Notes: a model not told the origin generated them from the sequence alone. 64,000 bases of DNA from Acidobacteriota bacterium (GCA_965218935.1 CBDCMH010000004.1:103965-167964), one strand, 5' to 3'; numbered from the stretch's first letter, positions 4,569 through 62,550 are shown. Numbers and translations are program-made.

Positions 4569-5162
4569 GTGGGGACCAATATGAGCCAGAAGAAGCTGAT
4601 TGTGGCCGTAACGGGAGCCACGGGGACCATTTTCGGGGTTCGTCTTCTGGAGTTGTTGCAGGGCTCTGAGGTGGAAACTCACCTGGTGCTGAGCAAATGG
4701 GCCAGGCGCACGCTCCTTTACGAGACCAAGTATACGCTGGAGCAGGTCCAGGAAATGGCCACAGAGGTCTATCCGCTTCAGGATCAGGGAGCAGCCCTTT
4801 CCAGCGGATCCTTCGTAACCAGTGGAATGGTTGTCATACCGTGCAGCATGAGAACGCTTTCCGCCATCGCGCAGGGGGCGGGGGACAACCTGATTCATCG
4901 AGCCGCCGATGTGATCCTGAAGGAGCGCCGCAAACTGGTTCTGGTAGCGCGCGAATCCCCTTTCAATCAGATTCATCTGGAGAACATGCTGAAGCTGGCG
5001 CGAATGGGGAGCATTATCCTGCCACCTGTACCTGCTTTCTATAACCACCCCCGAGACATCGACGACATCGTCAATCATATTGCCGGCCGAGTGCTGGACC
5101 AGTTTGAAATTCATCTGGATGTGGTGAGCCGCTGGCACGGTATGGTCTCTTCGGTGCAGTAA
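4569..5162 (+). CDS. ubiX: Flavin prenyltransferase UbiX/Pad1 family
   Basis: LIVAVTGATGTIFGVRLLELL ... GMVVIPCSMRTLSAIAQGAGDNLIHRAADVILKERRKLVLVARESP matches the UbiX flavoprotein fold and conserved motifs (SGMVVxPCSxxTLSxIAxG). 197 aa is the usual size. Confidence 0.85.
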   Translation: MGTNMSQKKLIVAVTGATGTIFGVRLLELLQGSEVETHLVLSKWARRTLLYETKYTLEQVQEMATEVYPLQDQGAALSSGSFVTSGMVVIPCSMRTLSAIAQGAGDNLIHRAADVILKERRKLVLVARESPFNQIHLENMLKLARMGSIILPPVPAFYNHPRDIDDIVNHIAGRVLDQFEIHLDVVSRWHGMVSSVQ

Positions 5163-5175
5163 ACCTCATTCCTTT

Positions 5176-5210
5176 CGGATTCGGCACCTGAGGTGCCTCC
5201 CACATTCCGG
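5176..5210. repeat. REP-like hairpin element, family 1 copy (GGCACC-TGA-GGTGCC core)
   Basis: cggattcGGCACCtgaGGTGCCTCCCACATTCCGG sits immediately after the ubiX stop. It recurs at 22503, 56812-56958 and 60565. Confidence 0.7.
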
Positions 5211-5261
5211 ATGTTCTTGCTCGAAAATCCCTTCGGCTCTGTGTGTTCCTCGTAGTCCGGG

Positions 5262-8200
5262 CTAGAAGGTATATCTCATTCCCAGCTGCAGTTGACGGGA
5301 AGAACTTGTGGTCGAAAAGATGGTGGCCGCATTTCCCACCGGGATTCCATTGCCAAGGCAGGCGGAATCAGGCGGATCCACTAAGCAGGGGGCATTGAGG
5401 TCGTTGAAGACAATCACTCCACCGCCGGCTCCCCGGTTTTGAGGATGAGAGAAGTTGGCTTGATTGAGAAGATTGAAAACCTCCAACCGGAACTGCAAAC
5501 TGTGCTGCTCACTCAACCGGACACTTCGGGTAACGCTGACATCGAGTGTGGCAAAACCGGGGCCGATGAGGGTATTACGACCCAGCGTTCCCAGATGTCC
5601 TTCGTCCTGAAGAATAAAGGAGGAGACATCAAAGTATTTGTCGGGTCCGCCCAGCACAGGACTGTTGTCAGCACCCGGCACCAGGTCGGGACGGTGGCCT
5701 TCGCGCACGCGGTTGTTGACAATGTCGAAGGAGACGTTGGCTGTGAAAGGGTAGCCGCCCGAAAGAGTCAGGATGCCGGCTGTCTGCCAGTCGTTGAGCA
5801 GGATCCCGGCCACACTCGTTCGGCGAAAACTCAGGGGTAAATCCCAGGTGTACTGGAGGACGGCATGGTGAGCGATGTGGAAATTGGAAAGACCCCGATC
5901 GATGCTTCTGTCAAAGTAATGGGTTGCCTCAGGAAGGCTGTTGGTGAATTCTCGACGATAAGCCGAGGCGTCGTCCAAGGAACGGCCGTAGGTGTAATTG
6001 AACAAAAACTGGAAACCCGACTCCCAGCGCCGTGTGAGACCAATCTGCAGGGAGTTGTAGGCTGAGTTGGCATCGGTGGAGGTCAGGCGAACCGCATCCA
6101 GATCCGTATTCGGCCGGGCAGCCGGCCTGGTTCCCCAGAAAAGCCGCCCATCTGGATCAACGGACTGCGGAGCCGGGATATTGATGTCTCCCACCCGGGG
6201 TAGGTGCACTCCCCGGGAGCCGAAATATCCGACCCGGAGGACCAAATTCTGGCCCAGCGCCTGCTCCAGCACGATGTGATATCGCATCATATAGGGAGTC
6301 GATAATTCGAATTCGATGGGGTCCTGGCGCGGGTTTCCAGCCCCTCCTCCACCCTGTGGATCAGGATATTGAGGAGGAGGCCGAAAAATGGTTCGCACCG
6401 TCGTAAAGGGACTCTGGATCCTCACCCGGTAGCCAAAGATGTTTTCCCGGATGGGCTCATAAAAGATCCCGAAGCCGGTGCGCAAGACGGTGGGTTGGGT
6501 TCCACCGAAGTTCCAGGCCAATCCTACCCGAGGAGCGAAGTTCAAATGGGAGGGATTCTCAAAGAGAGGATCTCCGACCGTAGGAGCAGGATCCGTGATC
6601 TTCCGAAGGTTAGAGATCCCATCTTGCCTTTCGGTGGGCACCGTAAACCACTCGTAGCGAAGACCGTAACTGAGAGTCAGGGCGGGGCTCCAGCGATATT
6701 GATCGTGGATAAAAAGAGCAAACAGGTTCTGACGGTACTCTCTGTGTGAATCGGCATCCGCGTCGGCACTGATAAAACGCTGGGGGGCGTTGGTGAGGAA
6801 ATCCTCCAGATTTTCATAGACCAGCAGCCCGTCAAAGAAAAAATTGTAGTCGCCGGCACTGCGGTGGTACTTCCAGTCAAACCCCCATCGAAGATCGTGA
6901 CTTCCGGAAGAAAACTGAAAGGTGTCACTGAACTGATACTGGCCAAAAGGGAAATTCACGTCAGCGGTGTCGGTGCCGAAGCTGGTGAGACCGCGTATGT
7001 TAATTCGTCCCATATTCGGACGTCCCGGGATCAGAGGCGGAGCTGCCGCCAACTCCGGTGTGCTGGCTACGCTTTCACTCGTGTAGGCCCCTCGATTGTA
7101 GGCAAACTGAGCGGTGTGCAAGAGCCGCGAGGAAAACAGATGAGTCTCCTCGACGGTGAGATATTGATTGCGGGAGCTGAGGTCACTATCAAACCCCTCA
7201 ATACTGACCTCAAAGGGAGCCAGCTTCTTACTGTCATGAAAGGTGTAGCGCAGGAACAGAGAATCGCTTGATCCCAGTTGAAAGTCCGTCCGTGTATTGA
7301 AATGCTGGTCGTCGGTGGGCACTTGCTGCTGGAAAACATGCTCGGCAGTGCCATCTCCGAAGTCCTGCCCAAGAGCCCGGGGATAGAGATTCAAAATGGG
7401 TTTGATATCGTCTGCCACGGTGACTGGACCGGTGGGCAACATCCCCTCCCGAGCCGCATCGTTTGGAACCGTGTTGGAAAGAGTCAAGCCCAGGCGCTCT
7501 CGCAGACCTTCATAGCTAAAGAAAAAAGTGTTTTCTTCTCCAGGCAACGGCCCGCCAATGGAACCCCCGTACTGTTGGCGGGTTAAGGAAGGGGGGTCGC
7601 TCCGCTCCAAAGGGTTGGAAGGATCCCGGTCAAAGAAGTTGCGGGCATCCAAAGCGCTGTTTCGAAAGTACCCATAAAGAGACCCGTGCCAATCGCGTGT
7701 TCCCCGGCGTGTAATCACGTTGACGGTAGCACCGCCACTTCCCCCTATATAAGCGGGGTAGGCATCATTGAGAACCTCAAATTCCTGCACGGCATCCATC
7801 CCCGGCAGTAATCCTGAAACTCCACCGGGAGTGGTCTTAAGAATGGGGTGTTGAATATCGGTCCCATCCAGCGAATACTCGGTGCCTCTGGCACCGTTGC
7901 CACTGATCTCTGGAGTCGTCCCGTTTAGTGCCCGGATGTCCTTGGCCCGCACCGGGATCATTCCCGGGGCCAGCAGAGCCAGACTGTCCAGGCTGCGGCC
8001 GTTGTTGGGAAGCGAGGAGAAGGATACCTCGTTCACGATGGTGCTCAAGTGAGGACTGGAAAGATCCAGCGGCGCTGCCTCACCAATGACGGTAATGGAC
8101 TGTTCGGCATCCTGAACCTCCAATGTCAGATCCAGCGTAATGGCCTGCCCGGCGCTCAAGGAGAGATTCTTTCCCTCAACCGACTGAAACCCCCCATAAG

Positions 8201-8438
8201 AGGCGGAAATCTCATAGTTTCCCGAGGAAAGCCTCAAGAATGCGTAGCGGCCCTCTTCATCTGTGAGAGCCGAGTGGATGCGCCCACTCTCTTGATCATG
8301 TGCCTCTAGCACCACACCTGGGATCACGGCCCCCGAGGCATCGCGAATCTGGCCCGATATTTGGGCAGCGGGCGACTGGGCCAAGATTGAAGGTATGGAT
8401 AAAAGGAGAACCAAACCGGAGAGAATCCAATTTCTCAT
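5262..8438 (-). CDS. TonB-dependent outer-membrane receptor with N-terminal carboxypeptidase-regulatory-like (CarbopepD_reg) domain
   Basis: 1058 aa. Signal peptide, then ISGQIRDASGAVIPGVVLEAHDQESGRIHSALTDEEGRYAFLRLSSGNYEISASYGGF (CarbopepD_reg fold), followed by a plug and barrel. Ends ...LQLGMRYTF with a terminal aromatic residue typical of OM beta-barrels. This architecture is common in Acidobacteria. Confidence 0.8.
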   Translation of the reverse strand: MRNWILSGLVLLLSIPSILAQSPAAQISGQIRDASGAVIPGVVLEAHDQESGRIHSALTDEEGRYAFLRLSSGNYEISASYGGFQSVEGKNLSLSAGQAITLDLTLEVQDAEQSITVIGEAAPLDLSSPHLSTIVNEVSFSSLPNNGRSLDSLALLAPGMIPVRAKDIRALNGTTPEISGNGARGTEYSLDGTDIQHPILKTTPGGVSGLLPGMDAVQEFEVLNDAYPAYIGGSGGATVNVITRRGTRDWHGSLYGYFRNSALDARNFFDRDPSNPLERSDPPSLTRQQYGGSIGGPLPGEENTFFFSYEGLRERLGLTLSNTVPNDAAREGMLPTGPVTVADDIKPILNLYPRALGQDFGDGTAEHVFQQQVPTDDQHFNTRTDFQLGSSDSLFLRYTFHDSKKLAPFEVSIEGFDSDLSSRNQYLTVEETHLFSSRLLHTAQFAYNRGAYTSESVASTPELAAAPPLIPGRPNMGRINIRGLTSFGTDTADVNFPFGQYQFSDTFQFSSGSHDLRWGFDWKYHRSAGDYNFFFDGLLVYENLEDFLTNAPQRFISADADADSHREYRQNLFALFIHDQYRWSPALTLSYGLRYEWFTVPTERQDGISNLRKITDPAPTVGDPLFENPSHLNFAPRVGLAWNFGGTQPTVLRTGFGIFYEPIRENIFGYRVRIQSPFTTVRTIFRPPPQYPDPQGGGGAGNPRQDPIEFELSTPYMMRYHIVLEQALGQNLVLRVGYFGSRGVHLPRVGDINIPAPQSVDPDGRLFWGTRPAARPNTDLDAVRLTSTDANSAYNSLQIGLTRRWESGFQFLFNYTYGRSLDDASAYRREFTNSLPEATHYFDRSIDRGLSNFHIAHHAVLQYTWDLPLSFRRTSVAGILLNDWQTAGILTLSGGYPFTANVSFDIVNNRVREGHRPDLVPGADNSPVLGGPDKYFDVSSFILQDEGHLGTLGRNTLIGPGFATLDVSVTRSVRLSEQHSLQFRLEVFNLLNQANFSHPQNRGAGGGVIVFNDLNAPCLVDPPDSACLGNGIPVGNAATIFSTTSSSRQLQLGMRYTF

Positions 8439-8560: not shown

Positions 8561-9451
8561 GTGATATATTGGTGCCCAGTGAAACCCTCTTTACCAATAG
8601 CCTCAGTGGGTATTTTGACTCTTGTACTGCTCAGCTCCGGGGCCCGTTGCCTGGCTCAGGAGCAGCAAACACCCCAGGCCCTGATGGGCTGGGAAGTCTT
8701 GATGGGAGCAAAACTCCGACTCGTCGAGCTTCCGTCAACGGCAGCGCCAACACTTCCGGCCTGGCCGACTCACGGTCACAGGAATCCTGATGGTCACTCG
8801 ATTTCTTCCTCGAGTGACTCGGAACAGATGGTCACAGAGAGGATGAAACAGAGTCTTGAGGGTGCCATTCAGATCGCGAACGACTATCTCCCCCAAGATG
8901 TGCAGGGAAATTTTCAGCTCTGGATTTTCGAGAACATTCCCTATGCGGCCAAGACCGTGAATCCTCAGCTGATCCTCTCTGCTGAGGTGTTGAGCCCTGA
9001 AAATGGGGAGCGATTACCCTTTGTCATCGCTCATGAGATTCATCATCTTGCCTTGATGCGAATTGGATTCTCGAAATCCCATGCTTCAGTTCAAACCCGT
9101 ATCCTGGCCGGACTCCTCACCGAAGGCATTGCCACGTGGCTTTCTCTTTCATCCGGATTGTTTCCGGAATTGGATCAGATCATTCAGGAACCTCAACAAC
9201 TCAGAGCTTCCTTTGGCCAGGTTCGACATGCCCTCAACCGCTCAGCCGGGGATGTCCAGGCCCATACAGATGACCTCTATCGCCAGAATAAGTGGGGCTA
9301 CTATGTGGGCTGTTGGATGATCCAGCAAATCGAGGAACGGTTTGGCAGAGAAGCCTGGCTTGGACTACTCAACAAGTCTCCTGAAGAGGCTGCTCAGGAA
9401 CTGGTGACTCTTTATCTGCGCACCAACCCTCCCTCCGAATACCGTTTCTAG
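8561..9451 (+). CDS. Secreted putative zinc-dependent peptidase (HEXXH motif)
   Basis: Signal peptide, then ...LPFVIAHEIHHLALMRIGF contains an HExxH zinc-binding motif. 296 aa. Family assignment beyond the motif is inference. Confidence 0.5.
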   Translation: MIYWCPVKPSLPIASVGILTLVLLSSGARCLAQEQQTPQALMGWEVLMGAKLRLVELPSTAAPTLPAWPTHGHRNPDGHSISSSSDSEQMVTERMKQSLEGAIQIANDYLPQDVQGNFQLWIFENIPYAAKTVNPQLILSAEVLSPENGERLPFVIAHEIHHLALMRIGFSKSHASVQTRILAGLLTEGIATWLSLSSGLFPELDQIIQEPQQLRASFGQVRHALNRSAGDVQAHTDDLYRQNKWGYYVGCWMIQQIEERFGREAWLGLLNKSPEEAAQELVTLYLRTNPPSEYRF

Positions 9452-9507
9452 CCCGTACTATTCATAAACTGTCTGCTGCAGCGACGACAGCCTATGAATA
9501 ATCCGGG
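9452..9507. repeat. Family-2 intergenic motif, palindromic full copy (ACTATTCATAAACTGTCTGCTGCAG ... CTATGAATAATCCGG)
   Basis: cccgtACTATTCATAAACTGTCTGCTGCAGcgacgacagCCTATGAATAATCCGGg lies directly after the stop of the peptidase gene and is convergent with the TPR gene. The left arm matches copies at 30174, 32975, 39151, and the right arm matches 46118. Confidence 0.7.
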
Positions 9508-21900: not shown

Positions 21901-22495
21901 ATCTCTTTGGAAACAGCGCTACCTGGAATTCAAGTCACACCATCCTCCACTCCTTCGCCATCCTTCCGATCCAGAACACCGGGAGGAAGGGGAGGTCCGA
22001 GAAGATCATCAATATCCCGGAAAGGTGGACCGGGAAACCGGTCTGCTGGCCGGCCGTTTGGTACACATCTATCTCGAGCGTTATCTTCTCCAAGACGCTT
22101 TCGAGCCAGAAAACCTCTCCGCCTGTCTGAGGGAGATTCCAGGAGAGACTTCCGATTCAAGGTTAAAGCAAGGGGTGGAGAAAGTGTTGAGTGAGTTTTA
22201 CTCGGGGAAGCTGGTGGACCCCTCGGGACGACCCTATCGGGAACGAGTCCAAAGGGCACACGTTCTGGGACGTGAAATACCCGTCTATCTCCAGGACGAG
22301 GGTCAAGCGTGGCATGGCATCATCGATCTGGTTTTGGAGGAGGAGGAGATCATCCGGGCCATCGACTATAAAACGACAACTCAACAGGATCCCCTTCCAG
22401 AAGCTTATACACAACAGCAGCGCATCTACAGCGAAGCTCTGCGGCGCCTCTTCCCCGACCAGGATGTCGCCTTTGAATTCTGGTGGCTGAGGTAG
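18974..22495 (+). CDS. addA: AddA/RexA-type ATP-dependent helicase-nuclease subunit A (UvrD-like SF1 helicase + RecB nuclease domain)
   Basis: Walker A AFVWASAGTGKTHTL, helicase motif II LLVDEFQDTDPDQ, motif III KQSIYRFRSAD, and C-terminal PD-(D/E)XK motif GIIDLVLEEEEIIRAIDYKTT. 1173 aa. Confidence 0.8.
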   Translation: MSTRPSAPLSDAAARREAMTTPHHAFVWASAGTGKTHTLALRALYLLLNAPFLSPQEGDGQGPAGEIGSLYSAPSRQERLKSARAIIGSLILTTFTRKAAAEMQTRLYRYLESVTAAQTPSHLETEDPLFYEIIQTVLNNLESGQNMPLFAGLGGEESFHRLQAGAQALYEQAGELQISTIHSFAASILRRHPLQAGIPPTSRFAREDEDDLLGLEDQVLERWWQRKVLSDPQLQKELAQLLTVVPVRHIREWLTYSYQSPWMAKESEALPLEGEKEIQKLVDAGHALVQSLSRGGGSRIEGNRDRLDQILQGITSRQKGAFRELCDFILRTKRDLFLHDKITKTVRRAIEGLAPEHLCYFQSWTAFYIPALRICLAQEFAPIWAVWTRFLGRFVDWAEEAAMRELGLITFDEMIRLAVRLLEQHPSIRRAEQAKLRALLVDEFQDTDPDQLRLFKALLKHDPDDPHEVLGFFVGDTKQSIYRFRSADVPSIDDFCRRYESHTGCQLKQTEFRLKTSFRSVKAVTRFVNHFFEKELTLASKDEALVPFRTDEEVLPEWIFTDTDGEGRNFNVDQGRSYAAAQTLEMIQEYLESSASEKPPYKDILVLVRDWRQVDALLPVLQNAGIPVISSGAKTFYRQPEVLDLLNLLIALLHPQDKLATAAVLRGPLLYLSDPQLHDLLKEIPPERLFHSQQPLPESLPEEVRARIKHLRKLAAGRLESTLAEWLGEVRAFIPTALYTQPGDWEGRPLVRIGRVFENFKEAMEMTVIPPLVWLLKQRTRAAETGRWDSDNPGEDITVATENVEAVRVMTIHKAKGLEGRFTIVYGWSSVLSDLGDSPAKWKNPEVLSLTDDKGQKVQAFSLQWGPLKIVSSSYSEALEEERKGVRAEAERLAYVAVTRARDRMALLCPRSKHRPFPDRIQDFIGSARQKILAGSGSGHADICNGHLRFIHRPGFEITPPEVPSPSVSLQEDVYQSLWKQRYLEFKSHHPPLLRHPSDPEHREEGEVREDHQYPGKVDRETGLLAGRLVHIYLERYLLQDAFEPENLSACLREIPGETSDSRLKQGVEKVLSEFYSGKLVDPSGRPYRERVQRAHVLGREIPVYLQDEGQAWHGIIDLVLEEEEIIRAIDYKTTTQQDPLPEAYTQQQRIYSEALRRLFPDQDVAFEFWWLR

Positions 22496-22502
22496 CTCGT
22501 TA

Positions 22503-22538
22503 CCGGATTCGGCACCTGAGGTGCCTCCTACACTCCGG
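22503..22538. repeat. REP-like hairpin element, family 1 copy
   Basis: ccggattcGGCACCtgaGGTGCCTCCTACACTCCGG lies immediately after the addA stop. Confidence 0.7.
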
Positions 22539-22687
22539 AGGTCTGCAGCAAACCTAGAACTATGAAGCCGAACGGCTCTGTCCCTAAAGCAGCTTCCAAC
22601 TTCCTTGTCTCCCGTCTTCTTCTTCATGGTGTATGATGTAGCCGTTACATGGGTACACACACAGACCCTTGAAAAGGAGAGAAGCAC

Positions 22688-30109: not shown

Positions 30110-30173
30110 ACCCTCTGTGCTCCCTTGAGCATTAGTGCCTCGCTTGCTTTATCGTTGCCAACAACGGAATCTA

Positions 30174-30214
30174 GCCCGGGTTATGCATAGATTCTGTACT
30201 GCAGTAACGAAAGC
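30174..30214. repeat. Family-2 intergenic motif copy
   Basis: cccggGTTATGCATAGATTCTGTACTGCAGTAACGAAAGCG. It sits inside a possible MITE-like unit flanked by inverted GAGCATTAGTG / CACTAATGCTC at 30126-30140 and 30283-30297. Confidence 0.6.
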
Positions 30215-30373
30215 GCCGCGGTGATTGATCCGCTTCGACAACGCCTGGAAGAGTTCGAAGATATGCACAGGACCCGTCACCAGCATGCTCACTAATGCTT
30301 AGTGTATACTCGCCCATTGATGCACCGAGGTAAACGACCCTTCACTTCTTCCGTTAGAATCGGAGTGCACTAG

Positions 30374-32942: not shown

Positions 32943-32974
32943 GAGGATTTTCCTTCACCCTGTCTGCCTACCAG

Positions 32975-33014
32975 CCGGGACTATGCATAAATTGTCTACT
33001 GCAGTGCGGCAATC
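32975..33014. repeat. Family-2 intergenic motif copy
   Basis: ccggGACTATGCATAAATTGTCTACTGCAGTGCGGCAATC, about 30 nt after the TolC-like stop. Confidence 0.7.
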
Positions 33015-33123
33015 ATCCACGCTGACTGCGCGACCCGCAAGCGGGTACCCCCTTCCTTGGGCTCCTCGGCGTTGGTCGTTTTTCCCTTTGAGGAACCTCT
33101 AAATTGAAGGAACGTCTAAGAAG

Positions 33124-39142: not shown

Positions 39143-39150
39143 GGCCGTAG

Positions 39151-39190
39151 CCGGGACTATTCATAAATTCTCTACTGCAGCAGCGAAACC
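39151..39190. repeat. Family-2 intergenic motif copy
   Basis: ccggGACTATTCATAAATTCTCTACTGCAGCAGCGAAACC, 9 nt after the CopCD stop. Flanked by GCCGGGA...TCCCGGC long-range complementarity. Confidence 0.7.
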
Positions 39191-39332
39191 ATCCGCCCTG
39201 ACTAATCCCGGCTTTGCCGTGCTGTCGTGGGAACGTGACAGAGCTGCCAGACTTCGGTTTGGGAGGTGCGCCCACAAATCTCTGTTTGTCAACGGGTTAT
39301 AGGGCGCACGGCTGTGCGCCCCTACAGGGAGC

Positions 39333-44368: not shown

Positions 44369-44486
44369 ACAAATCTCAAATTTCAAACTCCAAATCACAA
44401 ACAAAATTCGGTTTGAAACAGTTCATAAGACCAAACTCAGAGGTTTTGAATTTGGAATTTGTGATTTGTAATTTGTTTCTGATTTG
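44369..44486. repeat. AT-rich strand-asymmetric inverted repeat (CAAAT-unit run, then complementary ATTTG-unit run)
   Basis: 44369-44406 acaaatctcaaatttcaaactccaaatcacaaacaaaa (almost only A/C). 44443-44486 ttttgaatttggaatttgtgatttgtaatttgtttctgatttgt (almost only T/G). It lies between the MFS stop and the amidohydrolase start, in an otherwise ~60% GC context. Confidence 0.7.
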
Positions 44487-50351: not shown

Positions 50352-50380
50352 GCGTGCCAGAACCTGACCAGCTGACCACA

Positions 50381-50430
50381 GCCGGCAGACCCGGCTGAAA
50401 TCCCAAATTCAAACCTGGAAGCGTTCGAAG
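50381..50430. repeat. Family-3 element: CAGCCGG-CAGA-CCGGCTG hairpin followed by CAAATTCAAAC AT-rich tail
   Basis: gctgaccaCAGCCGGcagacCCGGCTGaaatcccaaattcaaacctgg lies 30 nt after the bioA stop. Similar units at 62437 and partially at 53120; related AT-rich motif at 44369. Confidence 0.65.
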
Positions 50431-53050: not shown

Positions 53051-53077
53051 CCGCTGACAAGCTGACAGCCGTCAGCG
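53050..53077 (+). terminator. Stem-loop immediately after the TonB receptor stop
   Basis: CCGCTGACaagctgacagccGTCAGCGG (8-bp stem), followed by an A-rich rather than T-rich tract, so intrinsic-terminator function is uncertain. Confidence 0.35.
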
Positions 53078-53228
53078 GAAATTCAAAATTCAAAACCAAT
53101 TCCAAATCGAACTTGAAACTGGGAACCACAGCCGGCAGATCGCAAACCGCAGACCCCAGACCAACGAACACCTGACAGTTGACAAATCCCCGCCTTCTTT
53201 TCCAAAAGGACGACAGCACGAACTAAAC

Positions 53229-55284: not shown

Positions 55285-56797
55285 AATTCGCCAACTGGTC
55301 CTCTCCAACTACCCCTTGATTATCGCGACTCTGGTCGCCTACTTTGTCGTCTTTGCTCTCATTTCCTGGGCGGCAAAGCGAAAACTGGCCAAGGACGTGG
55401 GTGATTACGTGGTGGCCTCCCGGAATCTGGGATGGGTGGTGGTGACCTTCACCATGTATGCCTCGGTTCTCAGTGGAGTTGGGATGGCAGGAATACCCAG
55501 CACCATCTACACCATTGGCGTGCCCTTCGTCATTACCGCTCTGACGGGTATCACCATCTCAACAGCCCTCCTATGGTATTTCGGGCCCCGCATCTGGGTG
55601 CTGGGAAAGGAATATAGCTTTACCACACCGGGTGATTTGCTGGGAGAGTATTACCAAAGCGATATCGTCCGAATCTACACCGTGATCGCCAGCGTGCTTT
55701 ACAACATCGCTTATATTGTGGCCCAGCTTCTGGCTGGAGGGATCCTCCTGAGTGTTCTGTCCGGGAATGTCATTTCCTTGAGTGCAGGACTCTGGATGAT
55801 CACCATTATTGTGATGATCCATGTGGCGCTGGCAGGTCTGCGGGGTATTGCCTGGCTGGATTTTTTCAATGGCGCATTGATTCTCCTTTTGCTCTTTTTA
55901 TTCGGCGTGATCATCATGGCTGCCGCGGGAGGACCAGGCAATGTCGTGGCCGGACTGGGTGGAATCAGAGACAGGTTCATCGTCATTCCAGGAATGATCG
56001 GTATCTTTTCTCCATCCCGCATCTATGGGGTCGCGATCGGCTTGAGTATCGGAGCCATCGTTCTCTCCCCCTCAGCCTGGATCCGCATGTATTCTGCCCG
56101 CAGTCGATCACACTTTGCCAAGATCGGCGTTTTGATGCTTATCCTGTGGCTCATTTCCCACGTGATCGGGACCTACCTGATCGGGACCTATGGTCGAGTC
56201 CTGTTTCCCGATGCCGAAAATCCAGACTTCGTCTCTTCTCTTCTCGCCTTCGGGGTCCTGCCCGTCTTTATTGCCACGCTGTTCTTGATCGCGGTCCTGG
56301 CCGCGATTATATCTACCACCGACACTTATCTTCACACTCTGACGGCGACTGTTGTTCGAGACTGTGTCCGCACTCTGTTTTGGCCAAAGATGAGCGATGC
56401 TCAAGAATTCCGACTCAATCGTACCGTCGTCATTGGGGCTGCAGCGATCTGTATTATACTGGCTTTGCTGAATCCTGTTCTCATCACACCATTGGCCATC
56501 TTTGCAGGAGGGATTACGGTCCAGCTTCTCCCTCCGCTGGTGGGTGCCGTCACCTGGTCCCGCGCCTCGACAGAAGCTGCCCTGGTCGCTCCTGCCGTCG
56601 GCATCCTGTTGACTTTAAAGTGGGAGATGGGGATTTTTCCGGGGATTCTTCCCCCTCCGCTTGCGCCTGCGTTGCCTGGACTGGCGGTTGCATTCTTCAT
56701 CAACGTCTTCTTATTCATCGTGATCAGTTACCTCACCAAACCTCAGCCTCCCGAGCAGGTCGAAAAGTTCCACGGGCTCCTGGCAAAAAAATTGTAG
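55268..56797 (+). CDS. Sodium:solute symporter family (SSS) transporter
   Basis: 509 aa, ~13 TM segments. The N-terminal region ...DYVVASRNLGWVVVTFTMYASVLSGVGMAGIPSTIY is characteristic of SSF permeases. Confidence 0.8.
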   Translation: MNFPPEIRQLVLSNYPLIIATLVAYFVVFALISWAAKRKLAKDVGDYVVASRNLGWVVVTFTMYASVLSGVGMAGIPSTIYTIGVPFVITALTGITISTALLWYFGPRIWVLGKEYSFTTPGDLLGEYYQSDIVRIYTVIASVLYNIAYIVAQLLAGGILLSVLSGNVISLSAGLWMITIIVMIHVALAGLRGIAWLDFFNGALILLLLFLFGVIIMAAAGGPGNVVAGLGGIRDRFIVIPGMIGIFSPSRIYGVAIGLSIGAIVLSPSAWIRMYSARSRSHFAKIGVLMLILWLISHVIGTYLIGTYGRVLFPDAENPDFVSSLLAFGVLPVFIATLFLIAVLAAIISTTDTYLHTLTATVVRDCVRTLFWPKMSDAQEFRLNRTVVIGAAAICIILALLNPVLITPLAIFAGGITVQLLPPLVGAVTWSRASTEAALVAPAVGILLTLKWEMGIFPGILPPPLAPALPGLAVAFFINVFLFIVISYLTKPQPPEQVEKFHGLLAKKL

Positions 56798-56811
56798 CCA
56801 GCCGGTAAGAC

Positions 56812-56958
56812 TCCGGAACGTAGGAGACACCTGGTGTAGTGGCCGCTCTCAGAGCGGCCTTCTGGAATGTAGGAGGCACCTCAGGTGCCGAACGGCCACA
56901 AAACACCCCCGGATTTTCGGATTCGGCACCTGAGGTGCCTCCTACATTCCGGAGGTGT
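56812..56958. repeat. Compound REP-like cluster (family 1): degenerate copy, GGCCGCTC-TCAG-AGCGGCC hairpin, and an inverted pair of GGCACCTSAGGTGCC units
   Basis: ccggaacgtaggagacacctggtgt ... GGCCGCTCtcagAGCGGCC ... ggaatgtaggaGGCACCtcaGGTGCCgaa ... ggattcGGCACCtgaGGTGCCTCCTACATTCCGGagg. Located after the SSS stop and convergent with the PhoU-like gene. Confidence 0.75.
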
Positions 56959-57006
56959 CGGTGTGTAAAGAATGTCCTGGCACAACCCGTTAACGATATG
57001 CCGGGT

Positions 57007-57690
57007 TCACCGCTCAGACAGGATCTCGTCTTCGTCGAAGTAGTCCACCTTGTGCACCGGCATGACAACGCTGGAGACCACGTTGAGGAGATGTCCTCCA
57101 ATACGCTTATAGTATCGGGTGGCTAGAACAAGTGCGGAGGTCGTACCCGCATCGTATTTCTCCCCTGCGATTCGCTCGATTAGAGCATCGCTCCCCTGGG
57201 CGATTTCCCGTCCTTCGCGGATCAAGTGCAGAGCCCGCTCCGGTTCCAAGGAGGTAAACACCTCCGAGGCTGCCTGAAAAGCTTCCTCGATCCCCTGACG
57301 GTAGGAACGTAACTCCTTGACAATCTCGTCATCGGGCAACGTCTCCGGGGAAAAATCCACCAACTCTAAAATGTTCTTGGCATAGTCGCCCAGGCGCTCA
57401 ACATCCTTGACCAGGCTCATCAAGAGGAGGCAGTAGGGGACGTCCGGAGTGTTTCCCGGAACGGAAAGATGGGCCACCACCTGCTTGCGGATCGCTCGCT
57501 CGAGCTGATTGACCTCGATATCCTGCCTGCGGATCTGATCCCTCTCCTCGGGCATGGCTTTTCTCTCAAAAAAGATGCCTCCCGCGGAGAGTGTCATCTC
57601 ACGGGCCAACTTGAGCATCCGGGCGAAGTTCTCTCCCATTTCAGTAAGCGGGTTCTTGGATCGAAAAATAGTGAGTAATTCACGAAACAT
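57007..57690 (-). CDS. PhoU-domain protein (phosphate transport regulator-like)
   Basis: 227 aa with two PhoU-like helical repeats (…EVNQLERAIRKQVVAHL…; …KDVERLGDYAKNILEL…). Immediately downstream of a Na/Pi cotransporter gene on the same strand. Confidence 0.65.
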   Translation of the reverse strand: MFRELLTIFRSKNPLTEMGENFARMLKLAREMTLSAGGIFFERKAMPEERDQIRRQDIEVNQLERAIRKQVVAHLSVPGNTPDVPYCLLLMSLVKDVERLGDYAKNILELVDFSPETLPDDEIVKELRSYRQGIEEAFQAASEVFTSLEPERALHLIREGREIAQGSDALIERIAGEKYDAGTTSALVLATRYYKRIGGHLLNVVSSVVMPVHKVDYFDEDEILSER

Positions 57691-57704
57691 ATTTACCTCC
57701 TTGG

Positions 57705-58877
57705 CTACTCGAAGAATCTATTCAAGACTACGAGTATCGCGGGGAGACCGTAGAACAGACCTACCACATACAAGAGCGCCCATTTGCGGGACTCAACCGC
57801 TGACTCGGCCAGGGACCTTGCGGCAACCAGGGGCAGGCGCCGGATGAACGGAACCGGGTAGATGAGCGCTATTCCAGACAGGTTAAAGAGTACATGCACC
57901 AGTGCAATCTCTACACCCGCATGAGCGTTCGCCCCCGAAACAGCCAGGGTGGCCAACAGAGCCGTCACTGTGGTGCCTACATTGGCTCCGATGGCCACAG
58001 GAAAGGCCTGTTCAAGCGTCAGCAGCCCTGCGCCTGCCAAGGGTACCAGAAGCGAGGTCGTAATGCTGCTCGATTGTACCATCACCGTTACAGCCGCCCC
58101 CAACAGGATGGATACCAACACGCTTCGCCCCAGGAAGCGAGTGATGAAGACCTCGATGCTCGATTGGGTGGCCGCGCGCATCACCTTCACCAAAAACAGA
58201 AGCGCCCCGAAGATAAAGAGGGCACTCACCAGGACAAGAAGGACCCCCTGTCCTCGTTCGGCCTCGAAGAGTGCCGCGGCAAGGCTCTTTACAGGTACAA
58301 GGCCAGTTTTCAATGCGTCCTTAAGAGGATTCTCATAGGTGATGCCGCCCATTTCTCCAAAAGTCGACGCTAAAGCTACGGCGGTGCGATGGAGATAGCC
58401 CGTGGTGATCTCCACCGGCAAGAGCACCGCTACGGTTATGAAATTGAAAAAGTCATGACAGGTGGCCACAGAGAATGCACGGAGAAATTCCTCCTTGCGG
58501 CCCATGTGAGCCAAGGAAACCACCGTGTTGGTGACCGTGGTGCCGATGTTGGCGCCCATGACCATGGGTACAGCATTGGCTACAGGCAGTGGATTTTCGG
58601 GGGCAGCGACCAGGCCCACAATCATCGCCGTTGTGACGGACGAGCTTTGAACCAGCGTCGTGGCCAGAATACCGACGATCAGCGCCATGAAGGGATTTTC
58701 GGTGGTGGCGAAGAAGGCGTCCAGAAGATCCCGCCCCAGGAGCTTGAAGCCGTCGCCGAGGCCCTGGACTCCCATCAAAAAGATAAAAAGCAAGATCAAC
58801 AGAATGGCGGGTCGCCCCACGGCAGATAACGCTCCCGCCAACTTCGCTCGGTTCCCCGGTGGCAAGATGTCCTTCAT
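57705..58877 (-). CDS. Na+/phosphate cotransporter (NptA / type II Na/Pi cotransporter family)
   Basis: 390 aa. Duplicated QSSS-containing repeats (LVQSSSVTTAMIVGLVAA and MVQSSSITTSLLVPLAGAG) are diagnostic of the NaPi-II family. Confidence 0.8.
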   Translation of the reverse strand: MKDILPPGNRAKLAGALSAVGRPAILLILLFIFLMGVQGLGDGFKLLGRDLLDAFFATTENPFMALIVGILATTLVQSSSVTTAMIVGLVAAPENPLPVANAVPMVMGANIGTTVTNTVVSLAHMGRKEEFLRAFSVATCHDFFNFITVAVLLPVEITTGYLHRTAVALASTFGEMGGITYENPLKDALKTGLVPVKSLAAALFEAERGQGVLLVLVSALFIFGALLFLVKVMRAATQSSIEVFITRFLGRSVLVSILLGAAVTVMVQSSSITTSLLVPLAGAGLLTLEQAFPVAIGANVGTTVTALLATLAVSGANAHAGVEIALVHVLFNLSGIALIYPVPFIRRLPLVAARSLAESAVESRKWALLYVVGLFYGLPAILVVLNRFFE

Positions 58878-58919
58878 GGAATGAACTACAACCTACCCGC
58901 TTCTCGTTGCAACGGGTCC

Positions 58920-60356
58920 CTATTCGATTTCAAAGGCGATGAACCTGAGAGCCTCCTGGCGCTGTACCTGCACGACTACCGGATCGCCGGCTTGCAGCTC
59001 AGCCAACCGGGCACGCAGAGTGGCAAGGCTGGTGATCTCCAGGCCATTGATGGCGTAGATCACATCGCCCGGCAAGAATTCGGCCTGCCAATAGGGAGAG
59101 CTGGGAGAGCGGGCGGCAACCAGTACACCTCCCAGCTTTCTGGGTGGGAAAAGGATCTTGGCGACCTGAGCATCAATGTCGAGTCCCAAAATGCCCAACT
59201 TCGGAACCAGGCTATTCTCGGGCGTGACCATCTCAACAAGATGCCCGAAATCATCTTCTCGCTCGATGACTCGCACTCGAAAGGTCAGTTTTTGGGAACC
59301 CCGCAGCACATCCAAGGTGACCAGGTCGCCGACGCCATGCCCATAGAGGTTCACGTCAAACTGGCGACCGTTCTCCATGACTTTGCCATTCAGAGTCAGG
59401 ATGACATCTCCCACTTTGAGCCCCGTCAAATCGGCGGGCTCCCCGGGCAGGACATCGCCCAGGACCACACCCCATTCCTGAGAAAGACCCAATCCCTCTG
59501 CCAGGGTGGCAGTAATGGTCTGAGCCTTTACTCCAATCTCGCCGCGAGCGACACGGCCCGTGCTACGGATTTGCCTGAAGACATTCTTCGCGATGTTGCT
59601 GGGCACGGCAAACCCAACTCCCTCATTTCCTCCTGACTGGGACACGATAAAAGTATTGATTCCCATCACTTTCCCATTGGCGTCGACCAAGGGTCCTCCG
59701 CTGTTTCCAGGGTTGATGGGAGCATCCGTCTGAACATAGACCACCGGATCTTCCGGCTGGAGCTGCCTTGCCACTGAACTCACCACCCCCAACGTGACCG
59801 AATTCTCCAAACCGAAAGGACTTCCGAAAGCCAGCACCAATTGTCCTTGTTTGAGTTCGTCAGAATCTCCCAGTTCCAGAAAGGGAAGCTCGTCTTCAGG
59901 GATGCTCAACACGGCCAGATCGGTCTCATGATCGATTCCCACGATCTGGGCTTCCACCATTTCTCCTCTAGGTTTGAGAATGGACACTCCTTCAGGTGTA
60001 TCCCGCAACGATCTGGCCAGCAGAACCTGGACACGTCTGGCACCCTGGACCACGTGGGCATTGGTGAGGATGTAACCCTCCGGGTCGAGGATCACACCGG
60101 AGCCTGAACTTTGATCCCGGCTCAACAGGCTGGACTCCGTATTCCCCAGCGCTGTGCTGTATCCTGTGGCAAAGATTTGCACCACCGCTGGGCCCACCTG
60201 CTCCGACAGACTCTCAAATGAGCCGCTGAGCCGAGCTAAAGCGCCCTCGTTCCCCGCTGAGGATTGAGCCCGAACACTTGTCGTGCCCGCCAGCGTCGAA
60301 AGCAGACACCCGGAAAGAGCCAAAACATTCAGAGTACGACTCTTACGAGGCTCCAT
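58920..60356 (-). CDS. htrA: HtrA/DegP-family periplasmic serine protease (trypsin domain + two PDZ domains)
   Basis: Catalytic-triad motifs ILTNAHVV, D..., GNSGGPLV. Signal peptide, 478 aa, two PDZ-like regions. Confidence 0.85.
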   Translation of the reverse strand: MEPRKSRTLNVLALSGCLLSTLAGTTSVRAQSSAGNEGALARLSGSFESLSEQVGPAVVQIFATGYSTALGNTESSLLSRDQSSGSGVILDPEGYILTNAHVVQGARRVQVLLARSLRDTPEGVSILKPRGEMVEAQIVGIDHETDLAVLSIPEDELPFLELGDSDELKQGQLVLAFGSPFGLENSVTLGVVSSVARQLQPEDPVVYVQTDAPINPGNSGGPLVDANGKVMGINTFIVSQSGGNEGVGFAVPSNIAKNVFRQIRSTGRVARGEIGVKAQTITATLAEGLGLSQEWGVVLGDVLPGEPADLTGLKVGDVILTLNGKVMENGRQFDVNLYGHGVGDLVTLDVLRGSQKLTFRVRVIEREDDFGHLVEMVTPENSLVPKLGILGLDIDAQVAKILFPPRKLGGVLVAARSPSSPYWQAEFLPGDVIYAINGLEITSLATLRARLAELQAGDPVVVQVQRQEALRFIAFEIE

Positions 60357-60564
60357 GTATCGTTTCTCCCTTTACCAGATTGCGGAACAAAGATTTCGAT
60401 TGCCGTGTTGAAGCCTCTATTAAAGCACTCCTGGTTGCCAAGAGAAAACTTTTCTTCGGAGAAGGCCGAAAGAAAGAAGGAGAGACTAGAAAAGAGGATG
60501 GAAAGGAGAGATCTGCCGGAGGGGTCAGCCGGTAGGTGACCCGGACCCCATGAGCGGCAAGAAG

Positions 60565-60610
60565 CTCCGGAATGTGGGAGGCACCTGAGGTGCCTCCCAC
60601 ATTCCGGAGG
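60565..60610. repeat. REP-like element, family 1, perfect palindromic copy
   Basis: CTCCGGAATGTGGGAGGCACC-tga-GGTGCCTCCCACATTCCGGAG forms a 21-bp perfect stem with a 3-nt loop. It lies between htrA (5' end) and the STAS gene (3' end). Confidence 0.8.
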
Positions 60611-60670
60611 TCTTCGCAATCCTGACGGTTCCCGGCGAGCCACCGACTCGCCCCCACGTCGTTTCGTTAT

Positions 60671-61009
60671 CTAGGAGAAACTTCCCACGGCAGTCTCCTC
60701 ATCGTCATAGCTATCGAATACGGTGAGCAGTTTCGTGATTGCCAGCAGCTCTCTTATTTTCTTGGTCAAGTGAAGTAATTTGAACTGCCCCCCCTGGTTG
60801 GTGACGGTCGTGTACGAACTGACCAATTCACCGATGCCGGAGCTATCTACATAGCTGACGTCACCAAGATTCAAGAGAATGTCCTTGTTTCCACTGTCCA
60901 GGAGTTCACGAACTGTCTCGCGGATTTCCCGACTCCCCTCGCCGATCGTGACCTTGCCATGGAGCTCAAGGATCGTAACACCGTTCACACTTCGAGTATC
61001 AATTGTCAT
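60671..61009 (-). CDS. STAS-domain anti-sigma-factor antagonist (SpoIIAA/RsbV-like)
   Basis: 112 aa. ...[20 protein letters not shown]... carries the conserved phosphorylatable Ser in the DSSG context. Confidence 0.8.
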
Positions 61010-61484
61010 TTTCCTCTCCTCGCGTTTTATGATTCAATCTTTTTTCCATCCTCAATTCCAGCCCACCTTCAGGGAGAGATTTCCAATCCACCTCATCCAT
61101 AAAGGATCGCACAAAAAAGACTCCTCTCCCGCCGGGCTGAAGCAGATTGTCAGGCTCCAGCGGATCCCGGATTTGCGACTCATCAAAGCCTTCTCCTTCA
61201 TCCTGAACAAAGATCACCAGGCGATCCGGAAGACTTTCGAATCGAACCCCGACTTTCTTGCTCTCATCCGATTTGTTGCCATGTTGAATCGCATTGACGA
61301 CCGATTCTCGGATGGACAAGCCAATCCAATAGCGAGTGTCTTCATCAAACCCCACCATGCGAGTGATCGCATCCGAGACCTCCTGGACGAAGTCCAGATA
61401 ACCGAACTGGCTCCCGAAGGAAATCTCCAGTTCCGCCCCTCTGAGTTGACTGACCTGATCGTCCTCCCTGATTTCCTCGCCCAT
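60999..61484 (-). CDS. Anti-sigma regulatory factor serine kinase (RsbW/SpoIIAB-like HATPase_c)
   Basis: Start re-set to MGEEIRE (61484); the track ORF extends upstream through a TTG. It has N-box [10 protein letters not shown] and G-boxes VQDEGEGF...GGRGVFFV. 11-nt overlap with the STAS gene. Confidence 0.75.
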
Positions 61485-62436: not shown

Positions 62437-62550
62437 GCTGACTGCAGCCGGCAGACCGGCTGAAATTCAAAATCTCAAATTCTAAATTTCAAACCTGACC
62501 TGGAACCTGGAACCCGGAACCTGGAACGCGCGCGAAGCGCGCTCTGGCTC
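62437..62550. repeat. Family-3 element plus tandem heptamer repeats and GC palindrome
   Basis: gctgactgCAGCCGGcagaCCGGCTGaaattcaaaatctcaaattctaaatttcaaacctgaCCTGGAACCTGGAACCCGGAACCTGGAACgCGCGCGaagCGCGCtc. Starts 4 nt after the stop of the 61990 gene. Confidence 0.7.

Follow-up and report, generated by a model that had tools for sequence, protein, structure and literature searches.

What is the perfect hairpin that stands between the htrA and STAS genes towards the end of the window, by which we mean the whole 64-kb stretch of DNA analysed here, and what has put sequences like it into other gaps between genes? Our answer, which we hold with considerable confidence, is that four intergenic sites belong to one GT[AG]G-type REP/REPIN family maintained by a cognate class-2 RAYT. 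The case is built from the sequence and structure of the repeat, from its placement in related genomes, and from a transposase gene that it flanks there.

The repeat and its forms in the window

The core GGCACC-TSA-GGTGCC was searched for with the pattern GGCACCTSAGGTGCC, tolerating up to one mismatch, against a background of dinucleotide shuffles. Five matches were found in the 64-kb window (at 5183, 22511, 56875, 56925 and 60580), all of them exact, where 0.03 are expected by chance and none of 100 shuffles reached five. The longer arm GGTGCCTCCYACATTCCGGA, with up to three mismatches allowed, matched seven times in the window against an expectation of 0.02, and these seven include both arms of the 60566-60608 hairpin and a degenerate arm on the minus strand, which is a decayed unit. 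All copies are intergenic according to ORF calls and Pfam, and they come to four sites and seven arms in the 64 kb (Table 1).

The unit is GTRG-GA-GGCACC-TSA-GGTGCC within CTCCGGAATGTRGGAGGCACCTSAGGTGCC. Written in REP orientation it reads CTCCGGAAT-GTRG-GA-GGCACC-TCA-GGTGCC-GAA, and the pattern used for counting it is GGCACCTSAGGTGCCTCCYAC. Conservation extends over 30-40 nt, with a core stem of 6 bp and a loop of 3 nt. The tetranucleotide GTRG (GTGG or GTAG) lies unpaired directly 5′ of the 6-bp hairpin and forms its 5′ foot, and such a foot is the hallmark of RAYT-linked REPs (PMC3733652, PMC6006769). Every full unit has AATGTRGGAGGCACC; GTGG is the commoner version of the foot, and GTAG is present in four of the seven window arms.

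Three forms occur in the window: singlets, a 95-nt inverted doublet, and a fused doublet with no spacer. In the singlets the far side, (C)CGGATTC, can pair with the tail TCCGG, leaving the GTRG tract in an internal loop. The inverted doublet at site 3 has its GTAG feet pointing outward and a conserved 35-nt spacer. Folded as single-stranded DNA, the fused doublet with its flanks gives -31.3 kcal/mol (z = -10.6); the inverted doublet folds at -42 kcal/mol (z = -10.1), and the two singlets alone fold weakly. Related loci contain sequence like that of site 1 in as many as 142 places.

Table 1. Repeat units, flank modules and other repeated features of the window
Feature	Position	Strand	Sequence or structure	Neighbouring genes
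Site 1, REP singlet	5173-5214	+	TTTCGGATTC-GGCACC-TGA-GGTGCC-TCCCAC-ATTCCGGAT	UbiX-like flavoprotein gene 4569-5162 (+), convergent with TonB-type outer-membrane barrel gene 5262-8438 (-)
Site 2, REP singlet	22501-22542	+	outer stem CCGGA/TCCGG around inner GGCACC/GGTGCC; CYAC (GTRG) tract unpaired	6 nt past stop of AddA-like helicase-nuclease gene (ends 22495); ferritin gene downstream
Degenerate REP arm	56812-56831	-	GGTGTCTCCTACGTTCCGGA, two mismatches	
Second GTAG-tagged hairpin	56836-56859	+	GTAG-T-GGCCGCTC-TCA-GAGCGGCC; GTAG at 56836-56839, hairpin at 56841-56859	
Site 3, REPIN-like inverted doublet	56860-56954		left unit 56860-56889 (-), spacer 56890-56924, right unit 56925-56954 (+)	sodium:solute symporter gene (Pfam SSF; ends 56797), convergent with PhoU gene (ends 57007)
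Site 3, flank module	56955-56987	+	GTGTCGGTGTGTAAAGAATGTCCTGGCACAAC; recurs directly after REP units elsewhere (L005, L047, L097, L016)	
Site 4, left flank module	60517-60564		hairpin GGGTCAGCCGGTAGGTGACCC, then GCGGCAAGAAG; GCGGCAAGAAG prolongs the REP palindrome outward	
Site 4, flagged element	60565-60609		two REP units fused through a shared core; perfect 21-bp stem, 3-nt TGA loop	STAS gene stop at 60671 (-), 61 nt away; htrA start at 60356, 209 nt away
Site 4, right flank module B	60610-60667	+	GTCTTCGCAATCCTGACGGTTCCCGGCGAGCCACCGACTCGCCCCCAC; about 40 similar places in related loci	
Second intergenic repeat family, ~60 nt	9442-9505, 30173-30227, 32973-33052, 39145-39203	+	TAGCCCGGATTATGCATAAATTCTCTACTGCAGCGACGAAATCATCCGG...	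each copy directly 3′ of a plus-strand gene
IS of ~1.5 kb, two near-identical copies	10871-~12385, 39987-~41500		offset between copies 29116 nt	
Low-complexity intergenic tracts	44443-44479, 50364-50413, 53052-53108, 62445-62543		heptad-like	

The preliminary description had reported a perfect-hairpin repeat at four intergenic sites, with a 21-bp perfect stem at 60565-60610, and both points hold, the stem ending at 60609. The copies also lie where it had put them; its limits were too narrow, the repeated sequence reaching over 5164-5221, 22494-22553, 56855-56987 and 60517-60667. Every copy was said to stand 3′ of a gene, and each of the four sites does lie 3′ of at least one; the fourth is downstream of the STAS gene and upstream of htrA. 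The peptide NVGGTSGA, given as a spurious translation of the repeats, occurs in the spurious ORF 60343-60657. An Rfam scan of the whole window at gathering thresholds returned no match, and no paper was matched when the literature was searched in full text for both loop versions of the 15-nt core, consistent with the earlier remark that this is not a described REP family.

Several other repeats were noticed in the same DNA. The second GTAG-tagged hairpin type is found also in two related loci (L034 and L045; L numbers are our handles for loci) and upstream of the RAYT gene in L101, and we take it for a probable REP family distinct from this one and served by a RAYT of its own. The ~60-nt family, which has no match in Rfam, has 33 more copies over the ~1 Mb of loci that were fetched, and these often lie close to a REP doublet, on its upstream side; the first of its four window copies closes with its initial 18 nt repeated in inverted form, which gives it a MITE-like look. 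The ~1.5-kb IS has an integrase-core transposase (rve, PF00665) and inverted repeats of ~38 nt, and its two copies bracket ~27.6 kb of the window, which could make a composite transposon. The low-complexity tracts are common to related MAGs and consist of CTGACAG, GAAATTC/AAATTCA and GGAACCT runs, one of them followed by a GCGCGCGAAGCGCGC hairpin.

Distribution, placement and spacing in related genomes

An exact-pattern scan of a collection with one genome per species gave matches in at least 97 stretches, and nearly all of those listed come from about nine Acidobacteriota MAGs; the motif is not confined to the window. With up to four mismatches allowed, 138 units were counted across the window and 97 fetched stretches. 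In these sampled stretches JADFOI has at least 51 units, CBDUTA at least 42, JACZQQ and JAPYTY at least 11 each, and JAZFTY at least 9. Two complete genomes, OY760074.1 and CBDEGM01, have related variants. The repeats are 88-95% identical between the window and the related loci, while coding DNA is ~70% identical, and at that coding identity the window's species, probably an acidobacterium, is distinct from those of the related loci and has the repeat family in common with them.

Two finds fall outside the phylum. A typical doublet of the acidobacterial family is present on a 2.7-kb contig labelled Candidatus Binatia (L065, JAZFYO010000453.1), and this contig is possibly mis-binned. An isolated perfect hairpin with the same 13-bp stem, TTTGTGGGAGGCACCTCAGGTGCCTCCCACAAA, occurs at L051 4957-4985 and L079 719-745, which are one orthologous site in two actinobacterial MAGs (Actinomyces / Pauljensenia). 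It is without the ATTCCGGAG tail and was taken as coincidental, not as a member of the family.

Genes in the related genomes were placed with a crude non-overlapping ORF map. On this map 113 of the 138 units (82%) lie outside ORF-predicted genes, as do 13% of random positions; overlaps number 25 of 138 (18%) for units against 1705 of 1960 (87%) for random positions, and the overlapping units fall mostly in short or end-overlapping ORFs. Flanking genes could be classified for 80 units and are convergent for 35, tandem for 33 and divergent for 12, against a background, taken over every intergenic region of more than 20 nt, of 23%, 56% and 21% respectively. Of the 32 units placed between tandem genes, 22 are closer to the upstream stop than to the downstream start.

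Such placement would also suit hairpins that are primarily host RNA elements at transcript 3′ ends, acting as factor-independent terminators or exonuclease-blocking stem-loops, with the link to a RAYT incidental. At each of the four sites in the window the repeat is 3′ of a gene, units are over-represented between convergent genes and tend toward upstream stops, the folds are very stable, and a stabilising effect of E. coli REPs on upstream mRNA is known (cited in PMC3733652). However, no T/U tract follows the stems, tails such as GTCTTCGCAA being without a T run; unit orientation is unbiased with respect to transcription (14 in the same direction, 18 opposite); and the 12 divergent units of the 80 classifiable ones are on the promoter side of their neighbours. 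An RNA role also leaves unexplained the doublet spacers, the GTRG foot and the repeat-flanked RAYT found on five contigs. We judge it improbable as the primary explanation, and a secondary RNA-level effect is possible alongside the REP/RAYT explanation. The host-level roles offered in the preliminary description, terminator or mRNA stabiliser, find no support here, and intrinsic termination in particular was rejected as the primary explanation: in a terminator scan of 56500-61200, no hairpin-plus-T-tract site coincides with any copy of the repeat.

Single-arm singlets are the commonest form overall, and the inverted doublet is the dominant organised one, a minus-then-plus pair with its feet outward. 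Start-to-start spacing is 63-66 nt in 16 doublets (that of the window counted) and 111-117 nt in 10. The spacers accordingly come in two classes, ~35 and ~82 nt, which are conserved in sequence and found in both orientations, as is expected of a unit that inserts either way round. The fused hairpin with no spacer is rare, with one other exact case among the sampled stretches (L090 1325-1369).

With arms of 30-40 nt, the doublets resemble short elements bounded by terminal inverted repeats, and an active-looking IS is present in the window in two near-identical copies. The repeats might on these grounds be MITEs, that is, deletion derivatives of a DDE-type IS such as the rve-family IS, moved by way of their terminal inverted repeats. 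Yet the REP arms bear no relation to the inverted repeats of that IS (AAATGGATACGTTGCCTCATT...), no target-site duplications could be recognised where the arms border on further conserved repeat modules, and it is the single-arm singlets that are commonest. The sole protein gene repeatedly bracketed by the repeats is, moreover, that of a Y1 transposase, which needs hairpins and not terminal inverted repeats with target-site duplications. We consider a MITE origin very unlikely.

Conservation continues outward from the units and reaches well past the minimal REP into flank modules, with GTTTGCCACGAGTGGCAAGAAC on one side and TCTTTGCAATCCTGACGG...GGCGAGCCACCGGCTCGCC on the other (site 4, module B, in the window). 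As these modules recur, the clusters are mosaics, much as E. coli BIMEs are. Candidate parts are the 60-nt TAGCCCGGATTATGCATAAATTCTCTACTGCAG... element, the hairpin GTTTGCCACGAGTGGCAAGAAC, the REPIN and the module TCTTTGCAATCCTGACGG...GGCGAGCCACCGGCTCGCC, and the mosaic is ~90% identical across species whose genes are ~70% identical. A bolder reading, tentative and in our view rather doubtful, is that this is the first GT[AG]G class-2 REPtron/REPIN in Acidobacteriota and that its REP makes up only one part of a more extensive conserved mosaic between genes. If that were true, either a composite of ~250-300 nt would move, or the mosaic would have a selected function at the 3′ ends of genes.

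Within the family, the stem variants GGAGCC/GGCTCC, GCGCAC/GTGCGC and GGCGCC/GGCGCC are compensated and keep the tail. Such covariation is sparse because the loci were picked by exact match to the main variant, and these few variants are to be read as suggestive.

The RAYT gene and its flanking repeats

All ORFs of the repeat loci were compared by phmmer with E. coli RayT as the query. One match was found, a partial ORF in JADFOI010000018.1 (E = 1.6e-5). A regular-expression screen of the loci and the window for HUH...Y..NP ORFs returned none; the division of this gene between the neighbouring 8-kb blocks L015 and L023 hid it from that screen. In the 64-kb window itself no RAYT gene was found by the ORF screen or by phmmer, and we assume that a cognate RAYT is present in the window's own organism.

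The reconstructed RAYT ORF of 160 aa carries PDHVHVLV (HUH), HWQEGFYD (WQ) and YIHDNPVRDGLV, with a YIHDNPV motif. It matches Pfam Y1_Tnp (PF01797) with 43.7 bits, and its best match among solved structures is E. coli TnpA-REP (4er8, E = 3.8e-7), aligned across the HUH, WQ and Y motifs. By its motifs and profile matches, the associated protein is classed as a class-2 RAYT / TnpA-REP.

A Y1 HUH transposase with distant similarity to ISDra2-type TnpA structures could also belong to a conventional self-mobile IS200/IS605 element, in which case the repeats would be its ends or miniature derivatives (PATEs) and not part of a domesticated RAYT/REP system. Two equivalog models speak against this: the protein passes NCBIfam REP_Tyr_transpos (NF047646; 97.6 bits, cut-off 80) and fails the NCBIfam IS200 model (NF033573; 30.8 bits, cut-off 55). 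Its WQ and YIHxNP signatures are those of class 2 and not of class 1 (PMC6006769), and no tnpB was found beside the RAYT gene in the RAYT contigs examined. In the sampled loci, with a single RAYT ORF in 631 kb of repeat-bearing sequence, the repeats outnumber the gene by about two orders of magnitude. We hold an IS200/IS605 origin to be very unlikely.

The maintenance of the repeats by a cognate RAYT is favoured by what surrounds the gene. In JADFOI010000018.1 an inverted doublet of the wider-spacing class, its units ~104 nt apart, lies upstream, and downstream there is an inverted unit within a ~70-nt direct repeat that copies the doublet's left half. Homologues 73-99% identical were found in several metagenomes, and repeats adjoin the gene in every contig read. 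The REPtron arrangement is present on five independent contigs (JADFOI010000018.1, L101, L102, L103 and L104), with 76-100% identity among their RAYTs. Repeats stand on both sides of the gene in four of the five. In L102 and L104 a doublet lies on each side, and in L103 the gene is preceded by a half unit, while a doublet follows its stop directly. On L101 the repeats are on one side, the upstream copy being decayed; downstream it has the fused form, near-identical to that of the window but for an additional base in the loop. The loci L103 and L104 are orthologous, the upstream doublet of L104 being reduced to a half unit in L103, a difference consistent with doublets decaying into singlets. 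The earlier suggestion that the repeats are REP/BIME-type elements and RAYT targets is supported by their spread, by their extragenic bias and by these RAYT genes flanked by the motif in related organisms.

More distant RAYTs have other stems beside them. On a 1.9-Mb contig (L100) a RAYT 63% identical has on both sides a different but analogous doublet, with GTAGGAG feet and GCGGCC-type stems, and RAYTs 44-51% identical (L105, L116 and L121) are flanked by GAATGTGGGAGG, after which come GGGGC...GCCCC or GGGAC...GTCCC hairpins and then GA; the GGGGC/GCCCC stem is that of the 48% homologues. A metagenome scan with the RAYT protein found one further close relative, L104, and the window's REP was at none of 79 more distant RAYT loci in that scan. 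The hairpin stem co-diverges with the RAYT protein, the foot being kept in sequence and the stem in structure, a pattern that matches the expectation from published TnpA-REP work (PMC3733652, PMC6006769). Over RAYTs of 44-100% identity the GAATGTGGGAG foot is constant and stem changes are compensated, and such a series could serve to find out what a RAYT reads in its REP.

We propose that a cognate class-2 RAYT (TnpA-REP), a single-strand DNA nuclease-ligase of the HUH/Y1 kind, would generate and maintain the family. For the chemistry of cleavage and mobilisation and for the single-stranded substrate we lean on E. coli TnpA-REP and on work with Pseudomonas REPINs (PMC3733652, PMC6006769, PMC3337134). 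By analogy, the RAYT would recognise the folded hairpin with its GTRG foot on single-stranded DNA, and would cut and rejoin at the hairpin, so spreading doublets into intergenic DNA. Copies would persist mainly downstream of genes because insertion is least harmful there, and singlets and degenerate arms would be decayed doublets. Among the fetched loci with orthologous flanks, no clean case of a filled versus an empty orthologous site was found; orthologous REP clusters differ by indel polymorphism, with both genomes carrying REP material of differing extent.

Comparison with known systems

The family accounts for spurious ORFs such as those that carry NVGGTSGA, and it helps to explain assembly breaks at intergenic repeats in these uncultured Acidobacteriota, where most RAYT-bearing contigs have a length of just 1-3 kb. 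The general understanding of REPs is left unchanged by it, and its closest parallels are well studied.

The E. coli REP/BIME system with RayT (TnpA-REP, YafM; 4er8) is alike in several ways: its palindrome is short and imperfect and has a GTAG-type foot; it stands outside genes and mostly downstream of them; its copies pair in inverted orientation and combine with further conserved motifs into mosaic clusters; and repeats bracket the one gene for a Y1 HUH transposase (the REPtron). In sequence it differs, for the repeat described here bears no relation to it and has a core stem of 6 bp with a loop of 3 nt. In the present family the foot is mostly GTGG and not GTAG, the protein is distantly related, and the host phylum is Acidobacteriota.

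The REPINs of Pseudomonas fluorescens (Bertels and Rainey; PMC3116915, PMC3337134) share an inverted pair of REPs, set apart by a conserved spacer and folding into one long hairpin, singlets that look like decayed doublets, and a repeat conserved across species alongside its RAYT. By this likeness the mobile unit here, too, appears to be the inverted REP doublet. In contrast to the Pseudomonas elements, the present family has two spacer classes (~35 and ~82 nt) as well as a zero-spacer fusion, and its feet point outward.

Members of the GTAG super-family of Di Nocera et al. 2013 (PMC3733652) likewise have an unpaired terminal GT[AG]G, a stem that falls within 5-13 bp, as here, and a short loop; dimers predominate among them, and they lie between convergent or unidirectional ORFs. 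A predominance of GTGG has a precedent in GTAG-20 of Opitutus terrae (PMC3733652). That survey placed GTAG repeats in Proteobacteria, Cyanobacteria, Chloroflexi and the PVC group; what it described from Acidobacteria was limited to RAYT-like genes with long flanking TIRs ('TIRYTs'), with no GTAG REPs (PMC3733652).

The acidobacterial examples of the 2018 survey (Quentin et al., PMC6006769) are in class 3 TnpA-Y1, with ~600 copies in Solibacter usitatus. This class, known from Acidobacteria and Planctomycetes, resembles the present system in its acidobacterial host and in a high-copy hairpin repeat that flanks a Y1 gene. It differs in its YV..EQ-type Y motif, W[TA], CnGA foot and atypical structures (PMC6006769), where the protein described here has YIHDNP and WQ and its repeat a GTRG foot; membership in class 3 was rejected on these characters. 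Set beside all of these, the repeat of the window is an ordinary kind of bacterial selfish repeat whose particular sequence family, in an uncultured lineage, is undescribed, and the classical GT[AG]G REP-RAYT partnership would with it be extended to a phylum that had only atypical RAYT-like systems in the 2013 and 2018 surveys.
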